This document shows, piece by piece, positions 14,782-51,511 of a stretch of 64,000 nucleotides of DNA. The stretch lies in assembly GCF_058153355.1 (NCBI RefSeq), contig NZ_CM177019.1. One strand, written 5' to 3'. How positions within the stretch are numbered: position 1 is the first letter of the stretch; each line of letters opens with the position of its first letter. The translations under genes and the position numbers were made by a program. The notes beneath the pieces are model-generated. The model made no database searches, was not told where the DNA came from, and saw only the letters and a program-made list of their open reading frames with translations.

Positions 14782-14786
14782 CCGGG
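14782..14786. repeat. Target-site duplication CCGGG (right-end flank of Mu)
   Basis: Identical 5-mer occurs immediately outside both Mu termini (14782..14786 and 51507..51511); fits the Mu target preference N-Y-G/C-R-N. Confidence 0.9.
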
Positions 14787-14901
14787 TGAAGCGGCGCACG
14801 AAAAACGCGAAAGCGTTTCACGATAAATGCGAAAACTTTAGCTTTCGCGCTTCAAATGAAACAGCAGTATTAATTACTGCTTTTTATTCATTGCATGGGG
14901 A

Positions 14902-15627
14902 TCACTTAGGGTATGGCTGAACCCTGAATAGTTTGGTATTTAGCCGCTTCCTTGCTCGCTTGTTCAGGAATCTGATATAGCGATACTGATTAAATTTGTG
15001 CACTACGGCACGCTCTTTATTAGCCCGTAAATACACGCCTCGTTGTCCACCTCGCTTAATCGCGTTCATCGTTATCTCGTGATACCACTCACCATCCAGC
15101 TCGTAGAACGTACTTTCATGACTGCCAATAAAATCAAAATTCGACGCCTGATACACAACGCCTGCGCGTCCGCAGCGTTCGTCAGCAAAGGACTGAACCC
15201 ACTCCACTGACGGATACAGTAATCTGATAACTTTCAGCGCGTAGCTGATGGCCCGTGATTCAGAGTTGCGGGGCATGTCGTCGTGTAGCCACATGCGGTT
15301 CAACTCCATATAGCCCCGGTTATCCGTTTCAAGCACGACACGACGACCTGAGTTGGGGTTAAGGGCATATCCCCACTGGAGAACGCCAACCAGATCGCGC
15401 CCGCTGAATACTCCCAGGTGGAGGTAAGAGTTATTCACAAAACGGCGGGAATAGTGCTTTGTCTGAATAATTGTGCGGGCCAGCCAGCAGGATATGGTTT
15501 CAACGCGCAGCTCCTTTGAACCATAGCCAACAATCTGGCCTTCATACTCAATAACGCACGGTTTCGTCAGAATGCGTGATTTTTTCTCTTTTCCCACAAT
15601 GTTTCTCCGTGGGATGCTCGCAGGCAT
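14902..15627 (-). CDS. mom: Mu Mom DNA-modification protein (anti-restriction)
   Basis: Last gene before the Mu right end; 5' end overlaps com, the characteristic com-mom arrangement. True start may be internal to the 241-aa ORF. Confidence 0.8.
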
Positions 15628-15736
15628 TCAGCATTATGATGTGACGTTTGCAACGCGGACACCTGATTTCAATGTGATCAAAGGAATCCGCCTTAAATAA
15701 CAGTTTGTTGCAGTTTTTACAGCGAATTGATTTCAT
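15548..15736 (-). CDS. com: Mu Com zinc-finger translational activator of mom
   Basis: 62 aa with CxxC...CxxC zinc finger ([13 protein letters not shown]...CPRCK); overlaps the mom start. Confidence 0.85.
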
Positions 15737-15804
15737 CTCACCTCCTTTGCATCAATTCGCCACTATCTTAAAAAACATCATGGGTTGAGTGTGGTTATTG
15801 GGGC

Positions 15805-15850
15805 ATAATCGATCTGTATTACCGATCGATTTGATTGATTCGATCGTCGT
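15805..15850. promoter_or_regulatory. mom/com upstream regulatory region with three clustered GATC (Dam) sites
   Basis: GATC at 15811, 15824 and 15842 within 35 bp, just upstream of com; matches the known Dam/OxyR-controlled region of the Mu mom promoter. Confidence 0.6.
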
Positions 15851-16412
15851 TTTCTATATGCGTTCGTTTCGCGGGGTGTTTTTTATACAGAGTTGACAGG
15901 GCCACATCGTAGATCAATGCAACCTGCTTGCGGGGGATTCCTTGTGCTAATAAACGCCCGGCCTGCTCCCATTCCGCTTTGGTTAGTTTAGGTGGTCGCC
16001 CACCAATACGGCCTTTATTTCTGGCGGCAGCAAGTCCAGCCATCGTTCGCTCGATGATTAGTTCTCGTTCCATTTCAGCTAGGGCACCCATAACGTGGAA
16101 GAAAAAACGCCCCATTGGAGAAGATGTATCTATGCTGTCGGTCAGACTGCGAAAATTAATCCCTCGCTCCCGTAGTTCCCCGACGAGAGAAATCAGATGT
16201 TTCATGCTTCGCCCGAGACGATCCAGTTTCCAGACAACCAGCGTGTCACCTTTTTGAAGGCGCTTTAAAGCGCGTTTTAATCCCGGTCGGTCTGTCTTTG
16301 TCCCGCTTAATTTATCTTCAAATATTTGTTCACATCCTGCACAAACAAGAGCGTTTCGTTGCAGGTCTGTATTCTGGTCATTTGTTGATACCCTTACATA
16401 GCCAATCAGCAC
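15819..16412 (-). CDS. gin: Gin serine recombinase (DNA invertase of the G segment)
   Basis: Resolvase/invertase N-terminus (LIGYVRVSTNDQ, catalytic Ser) and C-terminal HTH; likely GTG start at 16412 preceded by GGGAGA (ORF track 15819..16430). Confidence 0.85.
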   Translation of the reverse strand: MLIGYVRVSTNDQNTDLQRNALVCAGCEQIFEDKLSGTKTDRPGLKRALKRLQKGDTLVVWKLDRLGRSMKHLISLVGELRERGINFRSLTDSIDTSSPMGRFFFHVMGALAEMERELIIERTMAGLAAARNKGRIGGRPPKLTKAEWEQAGRLLAQGIPRKQVALIYDVALSTLYKKHPAKRTHIENDDRINQIDR

Positions 16413-16466
16413 GCTGAATCTCCCGTCCAAAAGCGCAAATCATGCCATGCAGGCCGGAAACGGCCA

Positions 16467-16500
16467 TTATCTAAAACCTCGGTTTACAGGAAACGGTAAA
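16467..16500. repeat. gix recombination site, gin-proximal inverted repeat bounding the G segment
   Basis: ttatctaaaacctcggtttacaggaaacggtaaa is the near-perfect inverted copy (2 mismatches) of 19537..19570. Confidence 0.8.
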
Positions 16501-16537
16501 CAAGGCTGGTAACGCTGTTCAAAAGACAGGTGATACC

Positions 16538-17503
16538 TTGTCCGGTGGACTTACTTTTGAAAACGACTCAATCCTTGCCTGGATTCGAAATACTGACTGG
16601 GCAAAGATTGGGTTTAAAAATAATTCGGATGCAGACACCGATTCCTACATGTGGTTTGAAACAGGCGACAACGGCAATGAATATTTCAAATGGAGACACC
16701 ACCTCACTGGCGGCCGGGTTAAAGACCTGATGAATCTTAAATGGGATGCTCTGTATGTTCTTGTGAAAGCCCTTTTCAGCAGTGAAGTGAAAATATCGAC
16801 AGTCAATGCACTGAGGATATTTAATTCATCTTTTGGTGCCATTTTTCGTCGTTCTGAAGAATGCCTGCATATCATCCCTACACGAGAGAATGAGGGGGAA
16901 AATGGTGATATAGGGCCACTACGCCCCTTTACGCTTAATCTCAGAACTGGCCGGATAAGCATGGGGCATGGTCTTGATGTTACAGGGGATATATTTGCAA
17001 ACCGTTTTGCAATTAACAGTAGTACCGGCATGTGGATTCATATGCGTGACCAGAATGTTATTCTGGGCCGTAATGCGGTATCCAACGATGGTGCGCAGGC
17101 ATTGCTTCGCCAGGACCATACCGACCGTAAATTCGTAATTGGTGGGCTGGGGAATAAGCAATTTGGCATCTACATGATTAATAACTCAAGGACAGCCAAT
17201 GGCACCGATGGTCAGGCGTACATGGATAATAACGGTAACTGGCTTTGTGGTGCGCAAGTTATTCCCGGCAATTATGGCAATTTTGACTCCAGATATGTGA
17301 AAGATGTCCGGCTTGGCTCACAGCAATATTATGGTGTGAATAACTGGCAAACATGGAATTTCCAGTGCCCGTCAGGCTATGTACTGACGGGGATTAACGT
17401 ACAGGATACCGGAAAAAACTCTGCCGATAATATTGCAGGCGTTCATTACAGGCCAGTGCAAAAGTATATAAATGGCACCTGGTATAATGTGGCGAGTATT
17501 TAA
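16538..17503 (+). CDS. Alternative tail-fibre variable part S'v (silent in this orientation)
   Basis: Inside the G segment on the opposite strand to S; C-terminus ([10 protein letters not shown]) resembles the S C-terminus (NGTWYNAGSI). A complete gene would form only after inversion. Confidence 0.6.
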
Positions 17504-18032
17504 TATGATGCACTTAAAGAACATAAAAGCGGGTAATGCTAAAACACCAGAACAGTATGAGTTAACAAAGAAACACGGAGTTATCTGGCTTTACTCTGAG
17601 GACGGAAAAAACTGGTATGAGGAAGTGAAGAACTTTCAGCCGGATACAATAAAGATTGTTTACGACGAAAATAATATTATTGTCGCCGTCACTAAAGATG
17701 CCTCCACGCTTAATCCTGAAGGTTTTAGCGTCGTTGAAATCCCCGATATAACAGCTAACCGTCGTGCCGATGATTCAGGGAAGTGGATGTTTAAGGACGG
17801 AGCGGTGGTCAGGAGGACTTATACAGCAGACGAACAGCAGCAACAGGCCGAATCACAAAAGGCCGAGTTACTTTCCGAAGCTGAATCAGTCATCCAGCCG
17901 CTGGAACGCGCTGTCAGGCTGAATATGGCAACAGACGAGGAACGCACACGACTGGAAGCATGGGAACGCTACAGTGTTCTGATCAGCCGTGTGGATACGG
18001 CAAAGCCCGAATGGCCACAAAAACCTGAGTAA
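17472..18032 (+). CDS. Alternative tail-fibre assembly protein U' (silent in this orientation)
   Basis: 186 aa paralogue of U ([11 protein letters not shown]... versus MMHLKNISAGN...), inside the G segment. Confidence 0.7.
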
Positions 18033-18060
18033 AAATTAAGGCCCGATATCGGGCCTTCTC

Positions 18061-18594
18061 TCATTCTGGTTGTTCGGGAAACGTTACTGGCAGGCTGGAG
18101 GTGTCTGTGGATTCGACCTTCTGCGCATAGAGCATCCACTCGGTTAATTTTTGTTTATTCTCGTCGGAAATAATGCCCAGCCGTAGCTGTGAGTCCCACA
18201 GCTGGGTTTTATCCCTGACGAGCTGTAGCAGGCTTTGCTTTTCATTTTCCGCTTGTTGCCTCTGCTCTTCCCCGGTATAAGTTCGCTTTATCACTACGCC
18301 ATCTTTGAACATCCATTTACCTGAAATATCAGCCCGGCGATTTGCTGTAATATCAGGAACCTCAACGACGCTTGCGCCTTCCGGATTAATTGCTGAAACA
18401 TCCTTTTCAATACAAATAATAACGCCGTTGTGGTCATAGACCATTTTCAACGTATCAGGCTGAAAGTTCTTTTGTTCCTCATACCAGTTTTTCCCATCCT
18501 CTGTATAAAGCCATTTGATGTTAAATTGCTTTGTTAGCTGGTATTGCTCTTTTGTTTCAGGATTACCAGCAGAAATGTTTTTTAAGTGCATCAT
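18061..18594 (-). CDS. U: Tail-fibre assembly protein U
   Basis: 177 aa, directly downstream of S on the same strand. Confidence 0.8.
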   Translation of the reverse strand: MMHLKNISAGNPETKEQYQLTKQFNIKWLYTEDGKNWYEEQKNFQPDTLKMVYDHNGVIICIEKDVSAINPEGASVVEVPDITANRRADISGKWMFKDGVVIKRTYTGEEQRQQAENEKQSLLQLVRDKTQLWDSQLRLGIISDENKQKLTEWMLYAQKVESTDTSSLPVTFPEQPE

Positions 18595-18596
18595 CG

Positions 18597-20063
18597 TTAA
18601 ATACTCCCCGCGTTATACCACGTCCCATTAATGCAATACTGAACTGGCCTTGCCTGAGTTGTATCAATTAGTTCATCTCTGTTTGAGTTAACGGAACCGG
18701 TAACAACATAACCTGACCTGTCAGACCAGCCGGGACCATTCCATGTCTGAACAGATGACAGACCACCAAGGCGAATACCTGTAATAAACCTTGAGTTACA
18801 TTCTGCCTGCGTATATGCGCCAACATCTCTCGCTGATGGCTTGCGTGTTGTGGTGTAAAACTCTGACCAGCCAGCCTCAAATCCATAACCATCACGCGCT
18901 GAACGATAAAAAATACCGCCGTTCCTGTAATTCACACGGAACTGTACGGCAGGGCAACTCCCCGTATTCATATTGAAGTGGAGGATTAATGTTGTTGCGC
19001 CACCAATATTTGCGTTATAGACCCCGCTATTCCAGTTCCAGCCAACGGCTTTGTCGTTTCCGACGGTATTTCCTGTTTGCCCTAAAGCAAATGCAGGCTG
19101 CTGGTTTTTCGTGTTGTAGTCTCGTCGCCAGCCAGGAGCGTAAGCATCACCATGATTAATATAAGTGAATTGAGCGTTAGTGATTCCGCCGCCGCTGGAC
19201 GTGCCCGGCGTGGTAACGCGTATGGTCATTGCGCCGCGGGTGCCAATAACTTCCACCACAGCACCTGCAAGACAAATATTTCCGCAACCTGTATCTGTAA
19301 TGACCTTATTATTTGCATAAGCCCATGAGCCTTTGCACATCCAGTAAGGATGGTTAAATGCTCCCTGACTCTCCAGCCACGAAATAAATTGCGCAGTTGT
19401 CCAGACCTGACTATCGCCACCAATATCCACCCATGCGCTATATGCGCGACAGGCACCAATATTTTTGGTGAAGGTATCTTTTCCTGGAATATCTGCGCCG
19501 TTCTGGTTTTTCTGTAATGCGCCAGAAGCCTGATTTACCGTTTCCTGCAAACCGAGGTTTTGGATAAACAGCGGCTTATTGGGAATATCTGCTCCGTTCC
19601 GGTCTTTTGCCAGACGGGCATTGGCATTATCCATCGCAATTTTCACCGCTTTTGCGGTGGCTGCCAGCGTTTCACTGGGGCTGTCAGTGGCACTGGTTAG
19701 CTGAACGAGTCCTTTTTTGTTCAGGCTGGCATCATAGATATCCAGATTTTCACGTGCTGTACGCTGTGCTGATGCCCCGGCAGTTTTAATTTCGCTGAGG
19801 TTATTTTTTATCAGCAGCGCGTTCTTGTTCATGATGGCTTTAATGGACAGTGCAAGCTGGTTTAATTTTGTTTTATCCGGTTGAATACCGGCTTCTTCCA
19901 GCGTGTTTAATAACTCCGCCTGCACAATATTAAACCAGTCCATGCCGGGCCATGTGATAACATTATTCCCGTCACCTTCTGAAAACCAGCGAACGATAGC
20001 ACTACGCTTGGCGGATACGGGCGGCATGACGGTTACGCCGCTGTCGTTATCAATATAAAACAT
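18597..20063 (-). CDS. S: Tail fibre protein S (constant part outside G, variable part inside G)
   Basis: 488 aa; ORF crosses the gix boundary at about 19570. Confidence 0.8.
   Translation of the reverse strand: MFYIDNDSGVTVMPPVSAKRSAIVRWFSEGDGNNVITWPGMDWFNIVQAELLNTLEEAGIQPDKTKLNQLALSIKAIMNKNALLIKNNLSEIKTAGASAQRTARENLDIYDASLNKKGLVQLTSATDSPSETLAATAKAVKIAMDNANARLAKDRNGADIPNKPLFIQNLGLQETVNQASGALQKNQNGADIPGKDTFTKNIGACRAYSAWVDIGGDSQVWTTAQFISWLESQGAFNHPYWMCKGSWAYANNKVITDTGCGNICLAGAVVEVIGTRGAMTIRVTTPGTSSGGGITNAQFTYINHGDAYAPGWRRDYNTKNQQPAFALGQTGNTVGNDKAVGWNWNSGVYNANIGGATTLILHFNMNTGSCPAVQFRVNYRNGGIFYRSARDGYGFEAGWSEFYTTTRKPSARDVGAYTQAECNSRFITGIRLGGLSSVQTWNGPGWSDRSGYVVTGSVNSNRDELIDTTQARPVQYCINGTWYNAGSI
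19537..19570. repeat. gix recombination site, S-proximal inverted repeat
   Basis: tttaccgtttcctgcaaaccgaggttttggataaaca; inverted copy of 16467..16500. Confidence 0.8.
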
Positions 20064-20605
20064 TAGTTATCTCCGTCATGGTAAACAAATTTATAAATCT
20101 GATGTGCGGGTTTATATTTCTCCAGTAAACATTCCAGTGCACCCGATTCATAAACACGTAACGGCGTCAGAACATTATCCAGCACCGTTGCGTTGCGATA
20201 ATTTTTAATACCGTAAATATTGACCTGCGTAACCCACTGGCCTTCTGTGGAATCCGTCAGTCTGACGGTAAAACCGTACTGCGCAGCCAGCCATTCATAA
20301 AAGCGCCGACTCAGATTGCCGGTCATACGCATTTTATTTGCGGCAGCCCGCTGGCGTTCGGACAGGGTGCCGTTTTCGCTTGTACAGTCCGGCAACCCCA
20401 GAAATGATTCCCACTCCCTCAGATACCAGCGGGATGTGGACGGGAAACGCTCCCGCAGCATTTGCCGCGCATCATCCGCCGCAGTGGCAATCACATCGCT
20501 GATGGCCTGCGCCAGCGCAGATAATTTGCTGTCGGGGCTTTTATTCCAGGCAAGCCCTGACGGCAGTAATTGCAGAAAGGCAGCCTGATACGGTGTTACA
20601 GCCAT
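20063..20605 (-). CDS. Mu tail/baseplate protein (R position)
   Basis: 180 aa, between W and S in Mu gene order. Confidence 0.6.
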   Translation of the reverse strand: MAVTPYQAAFLQLLPSGLAWNKSPDSKLSALAQAISDVIATAADDARQMLRERFPSTSRWYLREWESFLGLPDCTSENGTLSERQRAAANKMRMTGNLSRRFYEWLAAQYGFTVRLTDSTEGQWVTQVNIYGIKNYRNATVLDNVLTPLRVYESGALECLLEKYKPAHQIYKFVYHDGDN

Positions 20606-21678
20606 TCAATTGTCCCCGGTGTTAACAGTTCCGTATTCTCCGAACGCCGGATCTCTGTCGGGAAACGCACTTCAAAATCATCCAGACCGGTAACACCTGC
20701 CACCGCACGGATAATACGGGAGGGGGCAAGTGTGCCGCCCGGCGTCACTTCATTAAAAAACATGGTATTAATGGCGTGGGTAATAGCCTGTTTCAGTTCG
20801 ACAGTCTTCGGTGATATATAAATCCGTGGATTTACCGGCTTTGCCTTTGGCGCAAATACCGTGACATTTACACCGTCAGGCTGTCCGACAATCAGGCCGG
20901 TTATCGGGTCAGTATGACCGGCGATATAATCCGCCACGCGTTCCACATCTGCCGGTTGTGGAAAAATATTGCTCCGGTTATCCATAACAAACGTCACCCC
21001 GACTGTGCCACCGCCTTTCCATGCCGGAAAACACCAGGCACGGGTAACGCCGCTGACTTCACGCGCCCAGCGAACATAATCAAACTGATTACCGCCGAAC
21101 GGAGGATACTGGACACGATATTCCAGCCGTGACAGCAGCTCCGCTGCACTCTCAATATCAGCCCCACCGGAAAACCCTTTTACAGTGATGGCATCGGAAA
21201 CAACACAGGCAACCGGGGTGATCAACGTTAAAAGGGTATTCTCACCGGTATTTCCTGCCTCACCGGCAGCCAGTGCGGTAACGGTAATTTCCGTCGTTCC
21301 TGCACGGCCAATCACAATGGCATCAGCCAGACTGTAAACCACACCATCAGCACGCTGCCAGCGTGTACCGGCAGGAATGGTGGTCGCTGCCGATGTGGTG
21401 ACAGTCAGCGGGCCGCTGGCGGCTGTCGCCTGTTTGCGGCGCACGCCCCAGAACCGGCAGTGCTCCAGCAACTCATCTTCATCTGCTGTCGACGGGATAA
21501 TCTGCCGTCCAACCCATGAAATATGCTCGTGACAACCGGCAGCAAGGCCCGCCTGAGCATAAGCAATGGCACTCAGCGTTTTTTCACGGGCCTGAGGCCA
21601 GCTACCCGGCAGGCGCTGTTCAATATTCTGTTCTGTACGGGCAATCAGCGATGATAATGTCGGTGGTGAATAAGCCAT
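20596..21678 (-). CDS. Baseplate wedge protein (gpJ-like), Mu W position
   Basis: 360 aa; order V-W-R-S. Confidence 0.65.
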   Translation of the reverse strand: MAYSPPTLSSLIARTEQNIEQRLPGSWPQAREKTLSAIAYAQAGLAAGCHEHISWVGRQIIPSTADEDELLEHCRFWGVRRKQATAASGPLTVTTSAATTIPAGTRWQRADGVVYSLADAIVIGRAGTTEITVTALAAGEAGNTGENTLLTLITPVACVVSDAITVKGFSGGADIESAAELLSRLEYRVQYPPFGGNQFDYVRWAREVSGVTRAWCFPAWKGGGTVGVTFVMDNRSNIFPQPADVERVADYIAGHTDPITGLIVGQPDGVNVTVFAPKAKPVNPRIYISPKTVELKQAITHAINTMFFNEVTPGGTLAPSRIIRAVAGVTGLDDFEVRFPTEIRRSENTELLTPGTIEWL

Positions 21679-22116
21679 TTAAACCCCGTTAAATACTGTT
21701 TTAAACTCATAAGGAATAACGGAACCATCCGGTAATGTCAGTGCAATGTAGAGGTATAACCAGCCCTGATGTAACTGTTCCGCTCTGACGTTAACCGCAC
21801 TTACCCGGCCCGCTGTTTTCAGCCATTCCAGCGCCTCTTCGGCATACTCTCTGGCACGTTCCGGCGTATCCTGTGTGGTTTTTTCACGTGATAACAGCCA
21901 CAACCGCGAACCGATGGGACGGTCGCGGTAACTGTCACCCCACCATCCACGGCGATCATCTGAACCATCCGGCAGCGTGTCAGAATCCAGCGTGCGCCGG
22001 TCGGTAAACAGGGAGATTGTCACATCGGTTGTCAGGCTGTCGTCGGTCAGCATATCAATGCCATCCTGTGCAATATCGCCGCGTCCGTTCGTCCAGATAA
22101 TGGCTAAATCGGTCAT
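21679..22116 (-). CDS. Baseplate protein (gp25/lysozyme-like fold), Mu V position
   Basis: 145 aa; order. Confidence 0.6.
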   Translation of the reverse strand: MTDLAIIWTNGRGDIAQDGIDMLTDDSLTTDVTISLFTDRRTLDSDTLPDGSDDRRGWWGDSYRDRPIGSRLWLLSREKTTQDTPERAREYAEEALEWLKTAGRVSAVNVRAEQLHQGWLYLYIALTLPDGSVIPYEFKTVFNGV

Positions 22117-22706
22117 TGCATCGGCCCTGTGGTTCCGCCGCTGTCGCCACGGTGGATATGCTTATCCGTCGATTTGCCATTGATGATGGCATCCGGGGCA
22201 GTAATATTGCTGTCGAACTGGCTTTTACCTTTAACGCCCAGACCTTTCTGGATCTCAACGTCGCCGGTAAACGTGGTTCTGGGTGTATCAACGGTCATAC
22301 TTTCATCAGCGTAAATCTCAACCGTTTTACAGGTAATGACGCAGCGCCCGTCCTTTGTCAGCCTGATACGATGCCCCTCGTGGTGGTAAATGCCTGCATC
22401 ACCCGGTTCAAGATTTGTCGGGCGGTAGCGGCGATCTTCCACCACAACGGCAATCCCCTGATCACGTTGTGCACCCACACAGGCAATCAGCGCCTCTGCG
22501 CCCGGCAGGGGAACGCTGAAATGCCCGTAATTTTGCAGGCGCTCCACTTCATCAGATTCCTCATCATCCAGCAGACCGACCTGCAGGTTCTGAACCTTTC
22601 GCCCGTCGTGAATCACGTTAACAACGGCACGCGCAAGCATCAGACGCACACGACGCATCAGCGGTGTCAGCAGGCGGTTCATGGCGGAATCATTTACTCT
22701 TTCCAC
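22113..22706 (-). CDS. Baseplate spike/assembly protein, Mu Q position
   Basis: 197 aa; order. Confidence 0.6.
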   Translation of the reverse strand: MERVNDSAMNRLLTPLMRRVRLMLARAVVNVIHDGRKVQNLQVGLLDDEESDEVERLQNYGHFSVPLPGAEALIACVGAQRDQGIAVVVEDRRYRPTNLEPGDAGIYHHEGHRIRLTKDGRCVITCKTVEIYADESMTVDTPRTTFTGDVEIQKGLGVKGKSQFDSNITAPDAIINGKSTDKHIHRGDSGGTTGPMQ

Positions 22707-41901: not shown

Positions 41902-41978
41902 GATGATTTCCCCCGGTACGGTTATTCATCACAGGATATTGAGGACGTAAAAAAAGCCGGATTAACCGGCTTTACTGT

Positions 41979-42916: not shown

Positions 42917-43190
42917 GATCGTACCTCCGGAAAGAGGCGGTGCTGCAACACCGCCTGAATTTACACATCAATCAGAGAGGATTTTATGGAAAATAATGTA
43001 CAACCTTATGATGTTGCAGGTTATGCGATTGCATCAGCACTGGTGCGCCTTCTGGTGAAGAAGGCGATCATCACCGCAGAAGAGGGCCAAGCCATTTTCA
43101 GCTCTTCAGCAGAGATTTTAAAAGATGCGCCTGCAATAAGAACAAGCCGCCGCGAAAACATGCAACTGTCAAAGATCATGGAAGACATTA

Positions 43191-43493: not shown

Positions 43494-43813
43494 TTTGCGG
43501 CCCTCAGAATAAATTCAGGATAAAATTTCAGACTCATTTGCCGTAACACATCCAGTGCAGCAACGGCTGCTGATTTATCGTTGCCATCAGCAATAGCGCG
43601 GAGATTTTCAATAATCCAGTGAGGACTCAGTGACTCAGCAACAATACCGAGTCGGTACGCCATGACCTCATCAATTGCACGGTTATAAGACGGGGCGTAT
43701 ACCGCCGCCACAAAGTTACCGATCACATCTTCAGGAAAACCCGCCGCCGTCAACAACGCTGTCAGTTCCTCGGATTTTGTAAATACGCCATTATTCATTC
43801 TGTTCACCTTCAC
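43490..43813 (-). CDS. Mu semi-essential early-region protein
   Basis: 107 aa. Confidence 0.45.
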   Translation of the reverse strand: MKVNRMNNGVFTKSEELTALLTAAGFPEDVIGNFVAAVYAPSYNRAIDEVMAYRLGIVAESLSPHWIIENLRAIADGNDKSAAVAALDVLRQMSLKFYPEFILRAAK

Positions 43814-44054
43814 AATTCATGCACGCCGTGTCATCGCCCATATCGCAGTGGTTGCATTTCTGCCCGCCACAATGGGGACACTCTTTCAGATATTCAGGGG
43901 ATTCATTACCGCAGGTCGGGCATTCCTGTTTCACCGTGGTGAATTTCCCCAGCCACGAATACGATGTTTCATTGTTTTCCATTGTTTGCCTCCGCCTGCT
44001 CCAGTGCCATAACTGGTGCGTCAGAACAGTCAAGAATGAGATAGCGCAGTACAT
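43791..44054 (-). CDS. Mu early-region Cys-rich small protein
   Basis: 87 aa; CPTCG...CPHCGGQKCNHC...CMNC zinc-ribbon-like cysteines. Confidence 0.45.
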   Translation of the reverse strand: MYCAISFLTVLTHQLWHWSRRRQTMENNETSYSWLGKFTTVKQECPTCGNESPEYLKECPHCGGQKCNHCDMGDDTACMNCEGEQNE

Positions 44055-44520
44055 GGTCGGTGATATTCCATGCGCTTGAGCTGCAAATAAAACGCCCCAG
44101 CCGGATATCGATATAAGCCATCACAAAACGGGGCATTCCCTGTTTGCACATCTCGTCATCCACTTCTGCAACGATGTGAACGGATTCACAGGTCAGTACG
44201 CCTGTCGCAAACTCTTTTGCCAGCGCGGGGATAGTATTACCTTCCACCCAGGGTAATGAGCGACGCCAGTTGCACCACACCGCATCATCAACGGCAGGCT
44301 GCTCAGTTGCGTTTCGTCTTACAGGCGGCGTCGGACGCGGGCGCGGAACGTCATAAAATCCGTTGCATTCGGTGAGCACTCCGGCATCAACCGCATCCCG
44401 CAGGAAATACACCATTGACGAGGGCAGCATCTTCATTTTTTCAGCCAGAACCCCGCAGGTCAGACGCCCGTAAGCCAGTAATAATGTGCTGACCCCATTC
44501 AGAACTTTTGCATCAATCAC
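43969..44520 (-). CDS. Mu semi-essential early-region protein
   Basis: 183 aa. Confidence 0.45.
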   Translation of the reverse strand: MIDAKVLNGVSTLLLAYGRLTCGVLAEKMKMLPSSMVYFLRDAVDAGVLTECNGFYDVPRPRPTPPVRRNATEQPAVDDAVWCNWRRSLPWVEGNTIPALAKEFATGVLTCESVHIVAEVDDEMCKQGMPRFVMAYIDIRLGRFICSSSAWNITDHVLRYLILDCSDAPVMALEQAEANNGKQ

Positions 44521-44523
44521 CGG

Positions 44524-45078
44524 TTATTCCTCCGTCAGTGCCACAAATTCAGAATGTTTAATACGCTGGCATTCGGAGGGAACTGGTCCTTTAACCTCAC
44601 CGTCCAGAAGGCGCACCTCAAACAAAATGCCGAATCCATCACGGGTGTGGTGCATCTCCCAGAGCGATTTGAAATCCCACATATTGGGTATGACATCAAC
44701 CCCAAGTTCATTGCACAGCCAGCCCGGAAAATCCGGGTATTTACCGAGCTGATTTTCATAGCCCCGGATAAGCTCCGCGTGTTCCCGGCCTGCTGGTGTT
44801 GTCATATCCGGCATCGCTGCCCATAACTGAATATCACCAATAAAAAGTGTCCTTGATTTAATCTCCCATCCTTCCGGTGGTAAACGGTTAAACCAGACAC
44901 GCGTAACCCTCTCAGGCCCTTTGTCACCAGACAAAAACACACCGCTTGCTTTCACTGATTGCTGTAATGACGCAATAATCTCACCACGCTTAACAGAAAC
45001 CTCTTTCAGCCAGCGAATCGTATAACCGTTAGCGGCTGCGTCACTCAGTTTAAAATAAGCACATGCTTTCATTTTCAT
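44524..45078 (-). CDS. Mu semi-essential early-region protein
   Basis: 184 aa. Confidence 0.45.
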   Translation of the reverse strand: MKMKACAYFKLSDAAANGYTIRWLKEVSVKRGEIIASLQQSVKASGVFLSGDKGPERVTRVWFNRLPPEGWEIKSRTLFIGDIQLWAAMPDMTTPAGREHAELIRGYENQLGKYPDFPGWLCNELGVDVIPNMWDFKSLWEMHHTRDGFGILFEVRLLDGEVKGPVPSECQRIKHSEFVALTEE

Positions 45079-45169
45079 TCTCTCCGGTTCTGATTAAGGC
45101 GCGAGTCGTCCCCTGACGCATCGCGCCATAATTAAACGAATGTGAATTAATTAAATATTAATGGTGGTA

Positions 45170-45694
45170 TTAAATACCGGCTTCCTGTTCAAACGGAATA
45201 ATGGAAAAATCTTCAATTCCCGATTTAACTGTAATTCCGGCAACACCTGCGACCGCTTTCGGTTCCAGTAAAATCGCTTCCTTGTTGATTTCCTGCTTCG
45301 TGCGAATAAAGCGTTGCAGGCCAAGACGCTCCAGCGTTTCCATCACTGCATCCATACCACGAATACTTACTGATGGTGGACGGACCCGCCACGATACATC
45401 ACCGGTGACAAGATTTGCCGTTTTCACTTTGCCGCCGTTTGTCAGTTCGTCGCGGTTCGCTTCACACCATCCCTGAACGCCTTTTGAAAGGGTTTCAATA
45501 TCGGTTTTAATCGGTGCAATCCGGGCTGCAAATTTCTCCGTAATTTCCGCGATGGCATCATTCATTTCCGTTTCCAGACGTGATGCTTCGCGCTGTAAGT
45601 CCCCGATGCGTTTAATATCGGTAATCACCGCATCGCGGTTTTGTGGCACATAAGCCGCTGCGGCACTTTTGATACGTTTTGCTGGTTTAGCCAT
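45170..45694 (-). CDS. gam: Gam (Ku-like DNA-end-binding host-nuclease inhibitor)
   Basis: 174 aa, MAKPAKRIKSAAAAYVPQN...; size and position as Mu Gam. Confidence 0.8.
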   Translation of the reverse strand: MAKPAKRIKSAAAAYVPQNRDAVITDIKRIGDLQREASRLETEMNDAIAEITEKFAARIAPIKTDIETLSKGVQGWCEANRDELTNGGKVKTANLVTGDVSWRVRPPSVSIRGMDAVMETLERLGLQRFIRTKQEINKEAILLEPKAVAGVAGITVKSGIEDFSIIPFEQEAGI

Positions 45695-45713
45695 AAATTA
45701 AAGCTCCTGTTAA

Positions 45714-46013
45714 TTAATATCCGCTGTATACAATGCTGGATACAGCTCGATTGCTTAATTCCATCTTTCGGGCAATGACATGAATATCCAGCCCTTCTTT
45801 ATAAAGTTCACGACATAAATATTTGTCGTGTTCACTGATTCGGTATACACACAATGATATTCCGTGCCTTCTGGCATGTGCCCGGAGGGCGGTTGTGGCG
45901 ACTTTCAGTTTTTCCGCCATTTCTTCAACGGTCATTTTCCCGACGTTGGCTTCGATAAATTCCCGGTCTTCGCGTGACCAGCGCTTACGATTACACTTCA
46001 TGTCAGCCACCAT
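45714..46013 (-). CDS. Mu early-region small protein, HTH-like
   Basis: 99 aa. Confidence 0.45.
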   Translation of the reverse strand: MVADMKCNRKRWSREDREFIEANVGKMTVEEMAEKLKVATTALRAHARRHGISLCVYRISEHDKYLCRELYKEGLDIHVIARKMELSNRAVSSIVYSGY

Positions 46014-46433
46014 TCAGTACAGCAGAGGCTCGCGCAGTGATGCCGGAATATGCCGCAGCGATAACTGAACCGCTTTCAGGGCAAGCGAGGAATAACAGCA
46101 GCGCGCCCGGCCTTTTGCCATTAACCGGTAATCGCGCCAGATACGCTGCCACATTTCACGGGCTTCAGGGTCTGATGCGCAGATGTATTCCCGGTCCATG
46201 ACGTACTCCCATAAATCCACGTTGAACGCACCGCCAAATGCAATGGCGCGGGATATGCTTTCGCCGCAATAACGCGCACAGATGCTGTAATGGTCGAAAG
46301 CAATCAGGTAAGTCTTTTCACCACAATCATCAACTTTCCGGGCGTAAATAAATCCGCGTAATTCACCACCGTTGTTATTGCGTCCCTGAATTCGGATTAA
46401 TGCCTGAATTTCATTTCGGATTTTGACGTTCAT
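46014..46433 (-). CDS. Mu early-region protein
   Basis: 139 aa. Confidence 0.45.
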   Translation of the reverse strand: MNVKIRNEIQALIRIQGRNNNGGELRGFIYARKVDDCGEKTYLIAFDHYSICARYCGESISRAIAFGGAFNVDLWEYVMDREYICASDPEAREMWQRIWRDYRLMAKGRARCCYSSLALKAVQLSLRHIPASLREPLLY

Positions 46434-46453
46434 TGTCAGCGCTCCTTTGCGAA

Positions 46454-46723
46454 TTAATGTTTAACCGCATTCACCGGATGTGGTACTAAATCACATTCAG
46501 CCTCCATACCCACTTTCTTCATAGTGGTCAGCATCTCATCTTTGGCCTTTTTAATAATTTCAGGAGCCATAGTCAGGACGATATTTGCCAGTAAATCATG
46601 AGGCCCGGTATTTTCCGTTGGCGAGATATCTGCAAGACATGCTTTTGCATCCAGAACTTCTCTGCGCCCATTGCAACCTTCACAACTTTCCAGCCATGTA
46701 AACTCAAAGATAACTTTTGCCAT
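46454..46723 (-). CDS. Mu early-region small protein
   Basis: 89 aa. Confidence 0.45.
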   Translation of the reverse strand: MAKVIFEFTWLESCEGCNGRREVLDAKACLADISPTENTGPHDLLANIVLTMAPEIIKKAKDEMLTTMKKVGMEAECDLVPHPVNAVKH

Positions 46724-46734
46724 TTTGTTTCCCC

Positions 46735-46989
46735 TTATTGATTCTGAATAACTGCGCTGGCTTTTACCTTCGCGCCTTTTACCTGCTTAAAGAAAACCGC
46801 GCTGCACCACGGACAACATGCAAAGGAGTCCCATACTTCATTTTCTGGTGAGCATTGCGTCATAATTTGCTCTTTGCACTTGGGGCAATTAAATGCAGTC
46901 AGAGCCACATTGTTATTCTGTACCCGTTTAACCCATTCAATATATTTTCCAGCTTTAGTACACATCGTTATCTCCAGATAATCTGGCAA
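46735..46989 (-). CDS. Mu early-region Cys-containing small protein
   Basis: 84 aa; CPKC...CCPWC pattern. Confidence 0.45.
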
Positions 46990-47195
46990 CCATTAAGACG
47001 GGCCGTCCATACAGAACGGGCCACCCCGGACTTATGCTCCATAATTCTGACCGCGTTTTTTACCAGTTCCACCGGTGGGTAAGTGATTTCAAGAATCGGA
47101 CGCGCCACGCCGAGATATGATTCATTTACATGACTCCCGCGCGCCTGTAACCAGTTCTGCGCATCCGTTGCCATTTTTATATTTCGGGCCATCAT
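46968..47195 (-). CDS. kil: Kil-position small protein
   Basis: 75 aa, first ORF downstream of B, as Mu kil. Confidence 0.55.
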
Positions 47196-47210: not shown

Positions 47211-48149
47211 TTAATTACGCAGCAGCGTTAAAATATCAACGTCCAGGTCTAATTCACGGAAAGCCTGACGCAGATAATCTTCGTTAACACGCTCACCTTT
47301 ACCATGAGCCGTCATGGCGGCAAGGCGAAGCGAATGATTCAGAATGCGAAGCGCACCGGGTTTCTGTGCAATTTGCTGTAACAACTCCAGTTCTTTTTCG
47401 CCGTTAATATGCCAGGCATCCGCAATAGCTTTTACATCGGCTTTTTTGGTTTTATTAATTGCAGTGGGCTTTGCAATACGGGAAAACAGACGGGCAAATT
47501 CAACCGTTCTGTTGCCCCCCGTCATATTTGAATAAACGCGGTGATTGCCCATCAGCACAAGGCCAGTGCGGGTTGATTCCTGTAACAGGCGGAGTTCTTC
47601 CAGAGCTTCAGCACCAAGATGATCAGCTTCGTCGATGATAACCAGCCCCTGTGTACCTTCAAGGCGGCGTCGCAGGGCGCGGGAGAGCGGCCCTTTACGG
47701 CGTGGTGCGTCATTCATTCCCAGCTCAAACGCCAGTTCAGTAAGACATTCCAGAACGCTGGCACAGGATGGCGTAATGGTGATCATCCAGACATTGTTAT
47801 TGGTGCGGCGATATTCACGGGCCGCTTCGGTTTTGCCCACACCAGGATTGCCACATACAACAGCAATACTTTCAGTCAGGCTGGCAAAACGCATACTTGT
47901 CCAGATTTGTTTTACCGTCTGCGTTTCCACAAAGCGGGGCGGTTCCGGTAGTTCTGCGACTGCATGATATTTTTCCAACCAGCGTTGCAGTATTTGTGCA
48001 ACACGTTCGTTATCCCCGTTGTACTTATCATTGATAAAACTACTGATAGTCCCGGTAGAAAGTCCGCTCTCAAGGGCAATTTGTTTAAAGGTGGTTTCTT
48101 CATTTTCTACAAGGGTGCGCAGTCCTGCGCGAATATCTGAAATATTCAT
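47211..48149 (-). CDS. B: Transposition ATPase / target DNA activator MuB
   Basis: 312 aa; N-terminal HTH, Walker A GNPGVGKT, Walker B VIIDEAD. Confidence 0.9.
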   Translation of the reverse strand: MNISDIRAGLRTLVENEETTFKQIALESGLSTGTISSFINDKYNGDNERVAQILQRWLEKYHAVAELPEPPRFVETQTVKQIWTSMRFASLTESIAVVCGNPGVGKTEAAREYRRTNNNVWMITITPSCASVLECLTELAFELGMNDAPRRKGPLSRALRRRLEGTQGLVIIDEADHLGAEALEELRLLQESTRTGLVLMGNHRVYSNMTGGNRTVEFARLFSRIAKPTAINKTKKADVKAIADAWHINGEKELELLQQIAQKPGALRILNHSLRLAAMTAHGKGERVNEDYLRQAFRELDLDVDILTLLRN

Positions 48150-48187: not shown

Positions 48188-50179
48188 TTAAATGACTTTT
48201 TTACGTCTGTTCTGTTCCAGAATATCCAGCGAATGATTCAGATATTCATCACGCTCAGTTTCGTATTCATCATCACGCTCCTGATTCTTCACCCGTTCCG
48301 TATTACCGGAAGGCCGGAAAATGCTTACAATTCGTGATTCTGGTGCTTCAGGTTCGGCTATCTGCGGCAGCAGCTCTGCCACTTCCAGTGCATCCATTTG
48401 TTTCTGTGCCTTAATCGCTGCTTTCGTCGCAGATTTCAGTTGTTTCTGGCGGCGGCGATATTCACGGCCTGCCGCAGCATCATTAAACGCAACAGGTGCC
48501 AGACATTCCGCTTCACAGATAAACCGACCGTCCAGGGTGTAGCAATAAACCGTGCTGTGTAACTGCTGTGGATCAAATCTGACCACAACTTTTTTCACTC
48601 CGGCATTCATTAACGCCATGTTGTAATAAACGTTTTTCGCGCCTTTAAGGGAGCCGCCAACTTTAAGCGCGAACTCGCCTTTACGTGAAACGTTCACCGC
48701 CTCGGCAGGCAGTAACAGCATCCGTTTTTGCTCTTCGGTAGGCTTACGCACAATCGTTCTGGCGTATTCACGCTCAAAAACGTCATCAAACGAAAGTTTG
48801 CCCCCGCACATTTCTGTTTCTCGGCCTGTTCTGGCATTGAACATCGCCACACCTTCGGCAAGGGTTTTCAGAAACAGCTCTGCATCAACAGCGCGGTCGC
48901 CATAGTTATCAGGTTTTGCCTGCGGATTAGGCCCCGTATATGCGCCAGCCAGTGCCGGATGTTTATCAACGTATTCCTCAAGGCCACCAACACCGAAAGC
49001 ACGTTCTACAGGTTTTGCCTGGCCCCAGCCTTTACCGGCAACAACGCTTGTCCAGTGCATGGTCGCCCCCATCAGTAAAAACAGCCCCTTTGGATCGTCC
49101 TCTTTCACCTTAAAGCGGTAGCGATTGGGCGCGCCCCCCGTCAGCCATTTATTCGCAGCACCACGGGTGTTATCAATGGTGATGTGAAAATCCTCCGGGA
49201 TGCCGTAGCGTGTCACTACATCCATGAACGAGAGGCGAATTGAATCGATGTTCTCGCTAACATCGCAGCGCCAGCCCAGAATTTTTCGGGTTTTCACATC
49301 CTGCCAGAACCATGTTTTCGGGCGGATCACATCACCGTTAAACCAGCGTACAAAGACGTTATGCAGATAACCGTCGCCGTTGATCCACTGCATGGCGTCC
49401 AGGTGTTCCACAGTTCGTTGCTGTGCCGGTATCAGATGCATCAGTGCATGTTCACCTTCACGGCAGGCAACAACCATTGCCCCGTCCAGTTGCTGAATCC
49501 GGCGAAATGCCGTGGCTCGGGAGGGAATACTCCAGCCATGCTCGCGGGCTGCCAGTTCCAGACGCTCATAACATTTGCGGAAGGCGGGTTTTTCCGGTCG
49601 CAGATAATCTGCAATCAGAAACTGCCAGGCATCCTCGTCAAATTCACTTTTGTGAACATTGCGACGGGATGCTCCACGTCCATCAACAAGTGCAGCCGCC
49701 CAGTCAGGCTTCGCAAACTTCTGTACCTGGTAATACTTGTCCCGCAAAGTGGATGCGCTGACCTGGTAATGCCCTGCAACGGTCGCAAAAGCCGTTTTCG
49801 TTGAAATCCCCTGGTTCAGCATTTCGTCTGCAGCCTGAACCGCAGGCAACCATTTTTCAGCAAGTCTGCGCTGGGAATCGCTGGCGTTATCCCATTTGCT
49901 CCACAGTGCCTCACGATCATAATCATGGGCTTCCAGCGTGGGGCGGGCGATTTCAAAATACCCCTGACTTGTTTCAATCTCTCCTTGTCTCAGCAATAAC
50001 GCCGCTTTCGCTTCAACAGGTAAAGAGTTCGCATTGTATTCAATTGCTTTACCACCTTTGACACCTGCTCTAGTGCGGTTTTGCCATCCTTGCTTTTTAG
50101 CAACATAAATCACACCAGCCGATGTTTTCGGCAAACCAGGAAGATTCGCACACTCTTTCGGTGATACCCAAAGTTCCAT
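48188..50179 (-). CDS. A: DDE transposase MuA
   Basis: About 663 aa from [15 protein letters not shown] (ORF track starts 3 codons earlier at 50188); end- and enhancer-binding N-terminal domains, DDE core, C-terminal MuB/ClpX-interaction tail. Confidence 0.9.
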
Positions 50180-50180
50180 G

Positions 50181-50408
50181 TTATTCACCTGCTTGATATC
50201 GGCTAGGCCAGATTACTTCCGGTTTAGTTTCTAAGGCGTTAGCAATAATCTGCTCACCCTTTGGCCAGTGTCGTTCTAGCGCATTAGCTAATGTAGTTGG
50301 CGCATAACCGAACTGCCGGGAAAGAGCTGATAAAGAGAGCTTTCTTTTCTTAAGTCCCGCAATCACATCCGCTCGATGCCAATCACGGGCCTTTTCGTTG
50401 GAACACAT
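50181..50408 (-). CDS. ner: Ner (Cro-like early repressor)
   Basis: 75 aa HTH protein immediately upstream of A, divergent from c. Confidence 0.85.
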
Positions 50409-50577
50409 TTAAAAACCCTCCTAAGTTTTGTAATCTATAAAGTTAGCAATTTAACTAAGTGTAAAAACTTAGCTAGCTTGCTAAAAAGATAATTACTGAA
50501 AAGCTTTTTGTAAAGTTACTTTTTAGTAAATTTCTTTGATTACTGATTAATGCATTGATAAATAAGGGGTTTAAATT
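50409..50577. promoter_or_regulatory. c-ner operator / early promoter / transposition enhancer region
   Basis: AT-rich 169-bp divergent region between c and ner with repeated ...aaagttac/gtaact... motifs; corresponds by position to the Mu operator region. Confidence 0.6.
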
Positions 50578-51168
50578 TTGAAAAGTAACTTTATAGAAAA
50601 AGACGATACTGAAAAGTCAATTTGGTGTTCGCCGCAAGAAATTATGGCTGCTGATGGTATGCCTGGATCTGTTGCTGGTGTTCACTATCGAGCAAATGTT
50701 CAAGGCTGGACGAAGCGAAAAAAGGAAGGTGTCAAGGGGGGGAAAGCTGTTGAATACGATGTGATGTCTATGCCCACCAAAGAACGAGAGCAAGTTATTG
50801 CGCACTTGGGGTTATCCACACCGGATACTGGTGTTCAAGCCAATGAGAAACAGGATTCTTCGGAACTGATAAACAAATTAACCACAACCTTAATCAATAT
50901 GATTGAAGAGCTGGAACCAGATGAAGCACGCAAGGCACTGAAACTTTTAAGTAAAGGGGGGTTGTTGGCGTTAATGCCTCTTGTATTTAATGAACAGAAA
51001 CTTTACAGCTTTATAGGATTTTCACAGCAAAGTATTCAGACGTTGATGATGTTAGATGCATTACCTGAAGAAAAACGCAAAGAGATTTTGTCAAAGTATG
51101 GGATTCATGAACAGGAAAGTGTTGTAGTACCTTCACAGGAACCACAGGAGGTAAAAAAAGCCGTATAA
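50578..51168 (+). CDS. c: Mu repressor c
   Basis: 196 aa, MKSNFIEKDDTEKSIWCSPQEI...; only Mu gene transcribed away from the early operon; TTG start with upstream AAGGGG. Confidence 0.85.
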   Translation: MKSNFIEKDDTEKSIWCSPQEIMAADGMPGSVAGVHYRANVQGWTKRKKEGVKGGKAVEYDVMSMPTKEREQVIAHLGLSTPDTGVQANEKQDSSELINKLTTTLINMIEELEPDEARKALKLLSKGGLLALMPLVFNEQKLYSFIGFSQQSIQTLMMLDALPEEKRKEILSKYGIHEQESVVVPSQEPQEVKKAV

Positions 51169-51236
51169 CAACCATGAACCAGCTAAAACATACTTCACCT
51201 CACATAATCACACATGTAACATACCTAAACGGCATA

Positions 51237-51506
51237 AGCTGATTTGTGATATGAGTCATTTGGTGACAGCCTGGTTGTTATCGGTTTTGAACGTTTTTTG
51301 AAGCTGTTATTGAAATGATTTGCAGTGTTTTTGTTTTTCGTATTTTGAATGAAACAAAAGCAATTTTTTACTATCTTTCGCGTTTCATTGATTAACGACT
51401 AAAATTTGCGCTACAGGCTTGCAAGCCCCACCAAATCTAATCCCATCAGATCCCGAATAATCCAATGTCCTCCCGGTTTTTTTCGTACTTCAAGTGAATC
51501 AATACA
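51237..51506. other. Mu left-end terminal region (attL; MuA end-binding sites)
   Basis: Reverse complement of the Mu left-end sequence TGTATTGATTCACTTGAAGTACGAAAAAAACCGGGAGGACATTGGATTATTCGGGATCTGATGGGATTAGATTTGGTGGGGCTTGCAAGCC... as I recall it. Confidence 0.8.
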
Positions 51507-51511
51507 CCGGG
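51507..51511. repeat. Target-site duplication CCGGG (left-end flank of Mu)
   Basis: Identical to 14782..14786. Confidence 0.9.

Follow-up and report, generated by a model that had tools for sequence, protein, structure and literature searches.

Mu-type phages transpose into essentially non-specific chromosomal targets and leave a 5-bp duplication of the target at the insertion site; for Mu itself, CYSRG pentamers are preferred 7-fold in vivo (PMC7350765). The element analysed here was compared with Mu (NC_000929/AF083977, Muvirus mu), with the Shigella phage SfMu (NC_027382) and with natural Mu-like prophages of Escherichia coli, which are found at various sites in 37 of 5,426 complete E. coli genomes. 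Such prophages (e.g. those of E. coli W and isolate 30602_1#64) resemble the present one in that they have the termini of Mu and lie, at unrelated sites, between 5-bp duplications. The prophage of isolate 30602_1#64 (NZ_OZ040490) is located in pspG, between copies of ATCAG, and is 93.4% similar, the widest alignment (coverage × identity) among those examined. None of these natural prophages, however, lies between the sulfoquinovose-utilisation genes yihS and yihR, where the element is inserted in the window studied here, i.e. the whole stretch of 64,000 nucleotides that was analysed.

With Mu, the element shares the termini, the gene order from c to mom, the immunity type, the 5-bp duplication, an invertible G segment with gin, the com and mom genes, and, at the sequence level, the central gyrase-site region. 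It differs from Mu in its overall similarity (93.5%), in the absence or replacement of gp7, gp12 and gp19, in three extra early ORFs, in a more divergent silent S-type fibre part (~62%), in the opposite orientation of the G segment, and in the presence of Arg47 instead of Gln47 in the repressor. With SfMu, it shares a colinear late half (~97%) that includes the whole G segment, the extra early ORFs (DUF5420-like and gp14-like) and the lack of Mu gp19, whereas the two cannot be aligned over the first 1.5 kb, where c, ner and the operators are located, and the overall similarity is 91.0%. As judged from these sequences, a Mu immunity type (c, ner) is combined with an SfMu-like tail-fibre segment. 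The element is, very probably, a natural and apparently intact Muvirus prophage that entered an E. coli-type chromosome via a single transposition, an identification that none of the observations contradicts; likely effects on the yih genes are considered below.

Element ends and relationship to Mu

In BLAST alignments, the element is colinear with Mu from end to end, except that the G segment is inverted and that short stretches of the accessory early region are swapped. Full-length, uninterrupted counterparts were identified for 51 of the 54 Mu genes, in the Mu order (c, ner, A, B, accessory early genes, mor, C, lysis, head, tail, G segment, gin, com, mom), in agreement with a preliminary description of this locus as containing a complete, Mu-colinear prophage of 36,720 bp. 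The minus strand of the element starts with TGTATTGATTCACTTGAAGTACG and ends with ...CGTGCGCCGCTTCA. Identity to the Mu ends indicates termini of the Mu type (5′-TG...CA-3′ with MuA-binding end sequences): the alignment to the Mu reference proposed in the preliminary description showed the first 96 nt and the last 79 nt to be identical to NC_000929; over the first 340 nt, 3 differences were counted, and over the last 200 nt, 6. The left end (attL, 51169..51506, minus strand) starts with TGTATTGATTCACTTGAAG; the right end (attR, 14787..14865, minus strand), which corresponds to the region of transposase-binding sites in Mu, ends with ...CGCCGCTTCA. A consensus of the MuA-binding site matched both Mu and the prophage poorly (4–5 mismatches) and was abandoned for direct comparison of the ends. 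Neither the Rfam scan nor the tRNA scan of the whole window gave a hit.

The nucleotide identity to Mu is ~97% where the two genomes align, and the whole-genome similarity given above is the BLAST-based identity multiplied by coverage. The ICTV species criterion is nucleotide similarity of at least 95% across the whole genome, and by this measure the element falls outside the species Muvirus mu. The ends match those of canonical Mu, as previously described, but the element as a whole is a natural relative of Mu, as indicated by its level of identity, its mosaic early region and Arg47 of the repressor.

These comparisons also bear on the possibility that the element is a laboratory Mu (e.g. Mu cts62) in an engineered or laboratory-lysogenised strain of the S17-1 type. 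Such an origin would be compatible with the length of the element (36,720 bp vs. 36,717 bp) and with termini that are nearly those of Mu itself, and Mu-carrying laboratory strains (S17-1) are indeed present in the genome collection. However, the identity and similarity values, the missing or replaced gp7, gp12 and gp19, and the extra ORFs argue against it, as do the host flanks, which belong to a lineage matching just 6–10 complete genomes at ≥99%. Furthermore, residue 47 of the repressor is Arg here and Gln in the Mu reference record, where Gln47 corresponds to the cts62 change. Given the identity, the mosaicism and this residue, a laboratory Mu was rejected, with a probability that we consider negligible.

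Target duplication and empty site

The element (14787-51506) is flanked by two copies of CCGGG, the left one at 14782..14786 and the right one at 51507..51511, both read directly in the window; at the empty site, the pentamer is present once, the expected outcome of a 5-bp duplication. CCGGG matches CYSRG and is one of the eight preferred pentamers of Mu. Two identical 5-mers are expected by chance in 1 of 1,024 cases; because the empty site was matched, there is no remaining doubt that the duplication is not a chance coincidence. The predicted empty site, ...ggctacatgCCGGGtatgtcgtt..., with a single CCGGG, was read directly in E. coli Z0117EC0005. When the element and one CCGGG are taken out, the resulting 79-nt site has perfect matches (100% identity) in 539 complete E. 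coli genomes, and a 1,205-nt reconstruction of the empty site yields a one-piece alignment at 99.0%. Thus, the uninterrupted yihS-yihR sequence with one CCGGG that had been predicted exists, and the earlier claims of a perfect duplication and of a single, unrearranged transposition event are corroborated by the Mu termini, the duplication, the contiguous flanks and the empty site.

The choice of the genome for this comparison is important. The yihS-yihR spacer of E. coli K-12 is a different allele that contains an extra element of ~85 bp; at the position of CCGGG in the window, it has a 13-nt gap and no CCGGG and, therefore, a genome with the same allele is needed for the empty-site test. K-12 was considered as an empty site and discarded as misleading on these grounds. 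The preliminary description had regarded an empty site without a single CCGGG at this position as evidence against the insertion; the prediction holds in genomes with the same allele, whereas K-12 would have wrongly counted against it.

The same observations make an assembly artefact, i.e. spurious joining of a Mu-like contig to the yih locus, exceedingly improbable, and nothing was found in its favour: each junction coincides exactly with a Mu terminus, the 5-bp duplication matches, and the reconstituted target is identical in the 539 genomes. A natural insertion, by contrast, would arise by the route established for Mu. MuA and MuB would capture the target, with 5-bp staggered cuts at CCGGG, and joint repair would then yield the two CCGGG copies; this mechanism is suggested by the end sequences, the duplication and the established biology of Mu.

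The insertion is contained within the 67-bp yihS-yihR spacer, just past yihUTS, and all host ORFs are intact. The ATG of yihR, at 51541, is 29 nt past the right-hand CCGGG, close to the 30 bp initially reported, and its Shine-Dalgarno sequence is kept. The junction reads GGCTACATGCCGGGTGAAGCGGCGCACGAAAAACG (35 nt). Among the 5,426 complete E. coli genomes, the same junction was found in none, as was the case among 100,044 species-representative genomes and in the metagenome contigs; the insertion is unique among the collections searched. The yihS-yihR spacer is a new insertion site, occupied by an element of a known kind that is real but ordinary.

Immunity region and transposition genes

The lysogenic repressor gene c (50578..51168) is on the plus strand, the same strand as yihR, and its 196-aa product differs from the Mu reference at 4 residues, one of which is residue 47. 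The ner gene (50181..50408, minus strand) encodes a protein 100% identical to Mu Ner. The operator region between these genes (50409..50577) would contain the divergent repressor and early promoters, an arrangement taken from PMC3820752, according to which the repressor promoter drives c. Compared to positions 864-1098 of Mu, there are 12 differences in 235 nt, a comparison that includes the first 66 nt of c. With Mu, the alignment of the immunity region begins at position 1, but those with SfMu and D108 start only at positions 1508 and 1519 of the prophage, respectively; given that the first 1.5 kb does not align with SfMu, the immunity type differs from that of SfMu. From the sequences of c, ner and the operators, we assign the prophage to the Mu immunity group rather than to the D108 or SfMu group. 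In the lysogen, the repressor would keep the early promoter off.

The genes for a DDE transposase and an AAA+ protein are both present. The A gene (48188..50179, minus strand) encodes a transposase of 663 aa that has 7 substitutions compared to MuA (98.9% identity) and contains D269, D336 and E392, and the B gene (47211..48149, minus strand) encodes an AAA+ target-capture and transposition protein of 312 aa, 97.8% identical to MuB.

Early, middle and late genes and the G segment

Compared to Mu, the accessory 'semi-essential' early region, from kil to gemA (42368..47192, minus strand), is mosaic. This is where gp7 and gp12 are absent or replaced and where the extra ORFs are located (46454-46723, 44524-45078 and 43490-43813), all of which belong to existing PHROG families of unknown function; the place of the absent gp19, in the gp18/gp20 interval beside mor, is outside this region. 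The mor and C genes (41139..42368, minus strand), for the middle and late transcription activators, are 99.2% and 98.6% identical to those of Mu, respectively. Among the lysis, head and tail genes, from lys through gp48 (20066..41041, minus strand), all Mu counterparts are full length, with 94.5–100% amino acid identity and no internal stops. The region homologous to the central strong gyrase site of Mu (33492..33791) is, at the sequence level, identical at 292 of 300 nt around the annotated cut site of Mu. Near the right end of the element, com (15548..15736, minus strand), for the translational activator of mom, is 100% identical to Mu Com at the protein level, and the DNA modification gene mom (14902..15627, minus strand) is full length (241 aa, 99.6% identical to Mu Mom).

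The G segment (16467..19567) was detected by an inverted-repeat search and by a reversed BLAST match to Mu. It is bounded by two 34-bp inverted repeats, the gix sites (16467-16500 and 19534-19567), which match at 32 of 34 positions and have the same central TC, and is located beside gin (15831..16412, minus strand), the gene for the G-segment invertase (193 aa, 99.0% identical to Mu Gin). The segment is in the orientation opposite to that in the Mu reference record and is colinear with SfMu. The tail fibre gene in the expressed position (18600..20063, minus strand) is an uninterrupted ORF of 488 aa that consists of the constant S part and an S′-type variable part, the latter 95.7% identical to Mu S′ and with matches to PHROG tail-fibre families; it is accompanied by a U′-type tail-fibre assembly gene in the expressed orientation (18064..18594, minus strand), 97.7% identical to Mu U′. 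In the silent orientation (16500..18029, plus strand), tblastn identified an alternative S-type variable part, with the low identity to Mu S noted above, and a U-type assembly gene (89%), in an arrangement colinear with SfMu. Gin would be able to flip the segment, and the captured copy would be one in which the S′/U′-type fibre is expressed.

Some of these features could point to a defective or domesticated Mu-like remnant, unable to transpose or to form particles, in particular the two differing positions in the gix sites and the 12 substitutions in the 235-nt operator region. Against this interpretation, all essential Mu genes are full length and without stops, and the transposase-binding regions at the ends do not differ from those of Mu; furthermore, the transposase retains its catalytic residues, and the two copies of the duplication match perfectly. 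A remnant of this kind is, hence, improbable, and an apparently intact prophage remains our preferred interpretation.

Host yih genes and the possible effect on transcription

The genes upstream of the insertion, yihU, yihT and yihS (11693..14748, plus strand), have the ORF lengths and order seen in the annotation of NZ_CP098223 and make up the described operon yihUTS (PMC8006165). A pattern scan detected a hairpin (CGGCAT...ATGCCG; 14763..14784, plus strand, reported by the scan on the minus strand) right behind the stop codon of yihS; its 3′ arm includes part of the target CCGGG, and the yihS side retains the hairpin. On the other side, yihR (51541..52443, plus strand), encoding the sulfoquinovose mutarotase (aldose-1-epimerase), is intact and matches NCBIfam NF011719 over residues 1–299 of 300 (E = 1e-185), in agreement with the genome annotation. 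ORFs, annotation and profile matches delineate a co-directional block further downstream (52504..59156, plus strand), consisting of a TauE/SafE-family gene (52504-53379), yihQ (53486-55522), yihP (55568-56953), yihO (56994-58397) and ompL (58464-59156). The co-directional genes listed in the preliminary description (yihR, yihQ, yihP, yihO and ompL) are all present, but the TauE/SafE-family gene between yihR and yihQ had been missed. Similarly, the Mu late genes had been described as antisense to the yih genes, which is the case for the early, middle and late genes, but c had been overlooked; it is co-directional with yihR and ends 372 nt upstream of it.

Mu insertions are classically reported as strongly polar, and the classical polar Mu insertion mutations reportedly include those of Taylor (1963) and Mu insertions in lac. 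The arrangement here is similar in that a 37-kb phage separates a promoter from the co-directional genes downstream of it; it differs in that the insertion is intergenic, with no ORF broken, and that the effect on expression is a predicted one. The 36.7 kb of mostly antisense phage DNA separates the sulfoquinovose-responsive yihU promoter from yihR, the TauE/SafE-family gene, yihQ, yihP, yihO and ompL, so that expression of yihR through ompL would likely be reduced or uninduced. Such a loss might be partly offset by c transcription that continues beyond the left end of Mu in the direction of yihR. No terminator-like site was detected from the stop codon of c to yihR, and therefore transcripts initiated at the repressor promoter could extend into yihR to some degree; RNA folding of the same interval showed no structure beyond that of shuffled controls (z = −0.86). 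Nothing usable was found in the literature on transcription out of the left end of Mu or on a terminator downstream of c.

Conversely, the insertion could be transcriptionally neutral or even activating if yihR through ompL had their own promoters or if transcription from the c promoter read out into yihR. The published operon yihUTS ends just ahead of the insertion, and the position and strand of c, with no terminator-like site before yihR, would be compatible with this scenario. However, no consensus promoter was found on the plus strand at 51500-58458, i.e. before yihR, the TauE/SafE-family gene, yihQ, yihP and yihO, in a scan that detects near-consensus sigma-70 sites alone and was at chance level overall. 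Moreover, in the sulfoquinovose papers on the operon, CsqR binding is described solely at the yihU/V and yihV/W spacers, although sulfoquinovose induces all genes of the long cassette; the same papers leave the transcription of yihR through ompL unsettled. The classical polarity of Mu insertions also argues against neutrality. We regard a neutral or activating insertion as possible but the less likely outcome, and a polar effect on yihR through ompL as plausible given the arrangement of the genes. Two stronger readings, namely that yihR through ompL, which make up the uptake and hydrolysis half of the sulfoquinovose pathway, have been rewired from the yihU promoter to a repressor-promoter read-out tied to lysogeny, or that a wild 'mutator' phage has turned the strain into a natural sulfoquinovose-negative mutant, appear unlikely.

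Implications

The current understanding of Mu and of sulfoglycolysis is unchallenged by this prophage, and its importance is modest. It provides, for a wild lineage of E. coli, a clean natural case of Mu-type transposition, with perfect ends, a consensus pentamer and the exact empty site in hundreds of genomes, and adds one more mosaic genome, with Mu immunity and SfMu-like fibres, to the small group of close Mu relatives. If the strain is available, the insertion also offers a natural setting for asking whether transcription of yihR through ompL relies on the yihU promoter.

Insertion site and its empty counterpart

The Mu-like prophage lies between yihS and yihR at positions 14787-51506 (36,720 bp), flanked by CCGGG copies at 14782-14786 and 51507-51511; length, junctions and 5-bp duplication read exactly as in the preliminary description. 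On the minus strand, it starts with TGTATTGATTCACTTGAAGTACG and ends with ...CGTGCGCCGCTTCA. Identity to Mu (NC_000929) is 100% over the terminal 96 nt at the start and 79 nt at the end, as expected of the canonical Mu ends that had been claimed, with 3 mismatches within the initial 340 nt and 6 within the final 200 nt. Thus, the left (c) end of Mu adjoins yihR and the right (mom) end adjoins yihS.

The reconstructed 1,205-nt empty site (element and one CCGGG removed) aligned unbroken over 100% of its length, with 99.0% identity to the closest complete E. coli genomes and at least 80% query coverage in 3,982 of the 5,426 complete E. coli genomes. E. coli Z0117EC0005 carries one CCGGG at the predicted position (...caggctacatgCCGGGtatgtcgtt...), and a 79-nt reconstruction matched 539 complete E. 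coli genomes at 100%. Thus, the flanks are continuous in uninfected relatives, and the insertion was one event without neighbouring rearrangement, as originally proposed.

K-12 was unsuitable as an empty-site comparator: its spacer carries an extra repeat-like element of ~85 bp and lacks 13 nt at the position of CCGGG. This 113-bp spacer (6403-6515 of the K-12 locus) was compared with 14749-14786 plus 51512-51540: the extra element is GC-rich (…CCCTCTCCCTAACCCTCTCCCCAAAGGGGCGAGGGGAC…) and absent from the window, the 13 nt missing from K-12 include the CCGGG target, and the annotated K-12 yihR start lies 8 codons farther upstream; the ATG used there is out of frame in the window allele.

From established Mu biology and the sequence, we infer that MuA, aided by MuB, would have joined the Mu 3' ends to target phosphates 5 bp apart, repair of the staggered joints then yielding the 5-bp duplication. 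CCGGG is one of the eight pentamers fitting 5'-CYSRG-3', the Mu target consensus; the preference for this consensus comes from MuA and is ~7-fold in vivo (PMC7350765). A small hairpin (CGGCAT...ATGCCG, 14763-14784) located 3' of the yihS stop codon shares part of its 3' arm with the target and is kept on the yihS side of the prophage.

Gene content and classification of the prophage

The nearest phage records by BLAST were Mu relatives (~97% identity), none of them identical to the prophage. The colinearity with Mu that had been described extends from end to end, except that the G segment, the invertible tail-fibre DNA, matches in reverse orientation and the accessory early region contains small swaps. 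Full-length, stop-free counterparts were found for 51 of the 54 Mu coding sequences, mostly with 95-100% amino acid identity; the only exceptions, absent or substituted, are gp7, gp12 and gp19, and each of the replacement or extra early ORFs (46454-46723, 44524-45078 and 43490-43813) falls in an already defined PHROG family of unknown function. The key functions look intact: D269, D336 and E392 are conserved in the transposase, which has 7 substitutions in 663 residues relative to MuA, and identity to the Mu proteins is 97.8-100% for MuB, Ner, Mor, C, Gin, Com and Mom. Around the position of the central gyrase site of Mu, 292 of 300 nt are identical.

The immunity region is Mu's own: the 196-aa repressor has 4 substitutions relative to that of Mu and ner has none, whereas the alignments with SfMu and D108 begin only at prophage positions 1508 and 1519, respectively. 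At repressor residue 47, the prophage has Arg and the Mu reference record Gln; the latter is the cts62 temperature-sensitive change of the sequenced laboratory Mu, so that Arg47 would be the wild-type residue.

The G segment is flanked by 34-bp inverted repeats (16467-16500 and 19534-19567) that share the central TC and agree at 32 of 34 positions, whereas the two repeats of Mu are identical; a 1-bp repeat difference has been proposed as a possible hindrance to inversion (SfMu paper). In the captured orientation, the fibre gene (18600-20063, minus strand) is an unbroken 488-aa frame combining constant S with a variable part of the S' type; U' comes next, and the alternative S-type and U-type pair is silent on the opposite strand. 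Both orientations are usual in lysogen populations (PMC4406740), so the captured one carries no meaning.

Whole-genome similarity (BLAST-based, identities times 2 over summed lengths) was 93.5% with Mu, 93.4% with the Mu-like prophage in pspG of E. coli isolate 30602_1#64, 91.6% with Yersinia phage vB_YpM_3 and 91.0% with SfMu. The prophage is thus a natural mosaic member of the genus Muvirus; lying below the conventional 95% species level, it is not laboratory Mu.

The vB_YpM_3 record (MT374852) contains host DNA at both ends (1-108 and 37010-39387), as expected with headful packaging of Mu-like virions; the left flank ends in CCGGG and the right one holds dtd and IS genes. The record length is therefore too large, the phage genome being the 36,901 bp between the Mu ends.

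Host locus

The flanks correspond gene by gene to the annotated sulfoquinovose cassette of NZ_CP098223. All on the plus strand, yihU (11693-12589), yihT (12613-13491) and yihS (13507-14748) precede the prophage, and yihR (51541-52443), yihQ (53486-55522), yihP (55568-56953), yihO (56994-58397) and ompL (58464-59156) follow it, co-directional as first listed, although that list left out a TauE/SafE-family gene (52504-53379, plus strand) between yihR and yihQ. The window yihT is an unbroken 292-aa ORF; in Z0117EC0005, a genome tied for top identity to the window flanks, its counterpart (4432-5310 of that locus) contains an internal stop and is annotated as a pseudogene. The yihR gene is complete and intact, NCBIfam NF011719 covering residues 1-299 of 300, and 29 nt remain upstream of it, close to the 30 bp first estimated, including an AAGGTG ribosome-binding sequence.

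The TauE/SafE gene (291 aa, annotated 'sulfite exporter TauE/SafE family protein') occurs in 1,287 of 5,426 complete E. coli genomes and is absent from K-12; its product matched nothing in NCBIfam or PADLOC, and TauE goes unmentioned in the main text of a 2025 paper on the long and short forms of the yih cassette (PMC12608037). Cassettes with this gene possibly represent a third common form, equipped with one more exporter of sulfonate or sulfite.

The fdoH-fdhE stretch shows at least 99% identity in only 10 complete genomes and 95-99% in the rest; the host is E. coli-like, of a sparsely sampled lineage. Between yiiF-like and yiiE-like genes lies a 637-aa ORF (4597-6510, minus strand; GC 39.6% over 4001-6000, which is low) without a match in Pfam, NCBIfam or PADLOC; its 2.7-kb stretch is found in 1,061 of 5,426 complete E. 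coli genomes, in which it is annotated as a hypothetical protein beside a transposase; K-12 lacks it. Immediately 3' of ompL (59337-63232, plus strand) are four genes of the Salmonella STM4015, STM4014 (ATP-grasp), STM4013 (sulfatase-like hydrolase) and STM4012 (radical SAM) families; the radical SAM protein, at 380 aa, matches the 427-position model in two stretches, so an internal deletion is possible.

Expression of the downstream genes

The prophage is genuine and its preliminary description right in essentials; its consequence for expression is what we infer. In classical genetics, Mu insertions are strongly polar. Published work treats yihUTS as an operon and places CsqR binding both within the yihU/V spacer and upstream of csqR (PMC8006165; PMC12608037), and sulfoquinovose strongly induces all long-cassette genes, including yihR, yihQ, yihP, yihO and ompL (PMC12608037). 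A simple consensus scan detected no sigma-70-like site on the plus strand of 51500-58458 or in the uninterrupted spacer of the empty-site genome, which is weak evidence, as non-consensus promoters escape such scans. Taken together, the downstream genes plausibly rely on transcription arriving from yihU, and this would be blocked by the 36.7 kb of mostly antisense phage DNA.

The phage genes are indeed mostly antisense to the yih genes, but the lysogenic repressor gene c (50578-51168), unmentioned at first, is on the yihR strand and ends 372 nt upstream of yihR. Neither pattern scan nor RNA folding identified a terminator in this interval, so transcription from the repressor promoter (described in PMC3820752) might reach yihR; we found no literature on such read-out.

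At the opposite end, an AT-rich hairpin after mom (14863-14881, AGCAGTATTAATTACTGCT; 2 substitutions relative to Mu) is terminator-like on both strands and continues as TTTTATT on the plus strand, so yihS-side transcripts entering the Mu right end might stop there.

Occurrence

Mu-like prophages (at least 80% of a 25-kb query) were found at varied sites in 37 of 5,426 complete E. coli genomes, including E. coli W and the laboratory strain S17-1. The pspG prophage, the widest alignment among those examined (coverage times identity), differs in interrupting pspG, with its own 5-bp duplication, ATCAG. The yihS-yihR prophage junction was present in none of the 5,426 genomes, nor in the species-representative genomes and metagenome contigs searched. 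The yihS-yihR insertion site is new, as is this mosaic variant, but the type of element is well known, a finding unsurprising to specialists.
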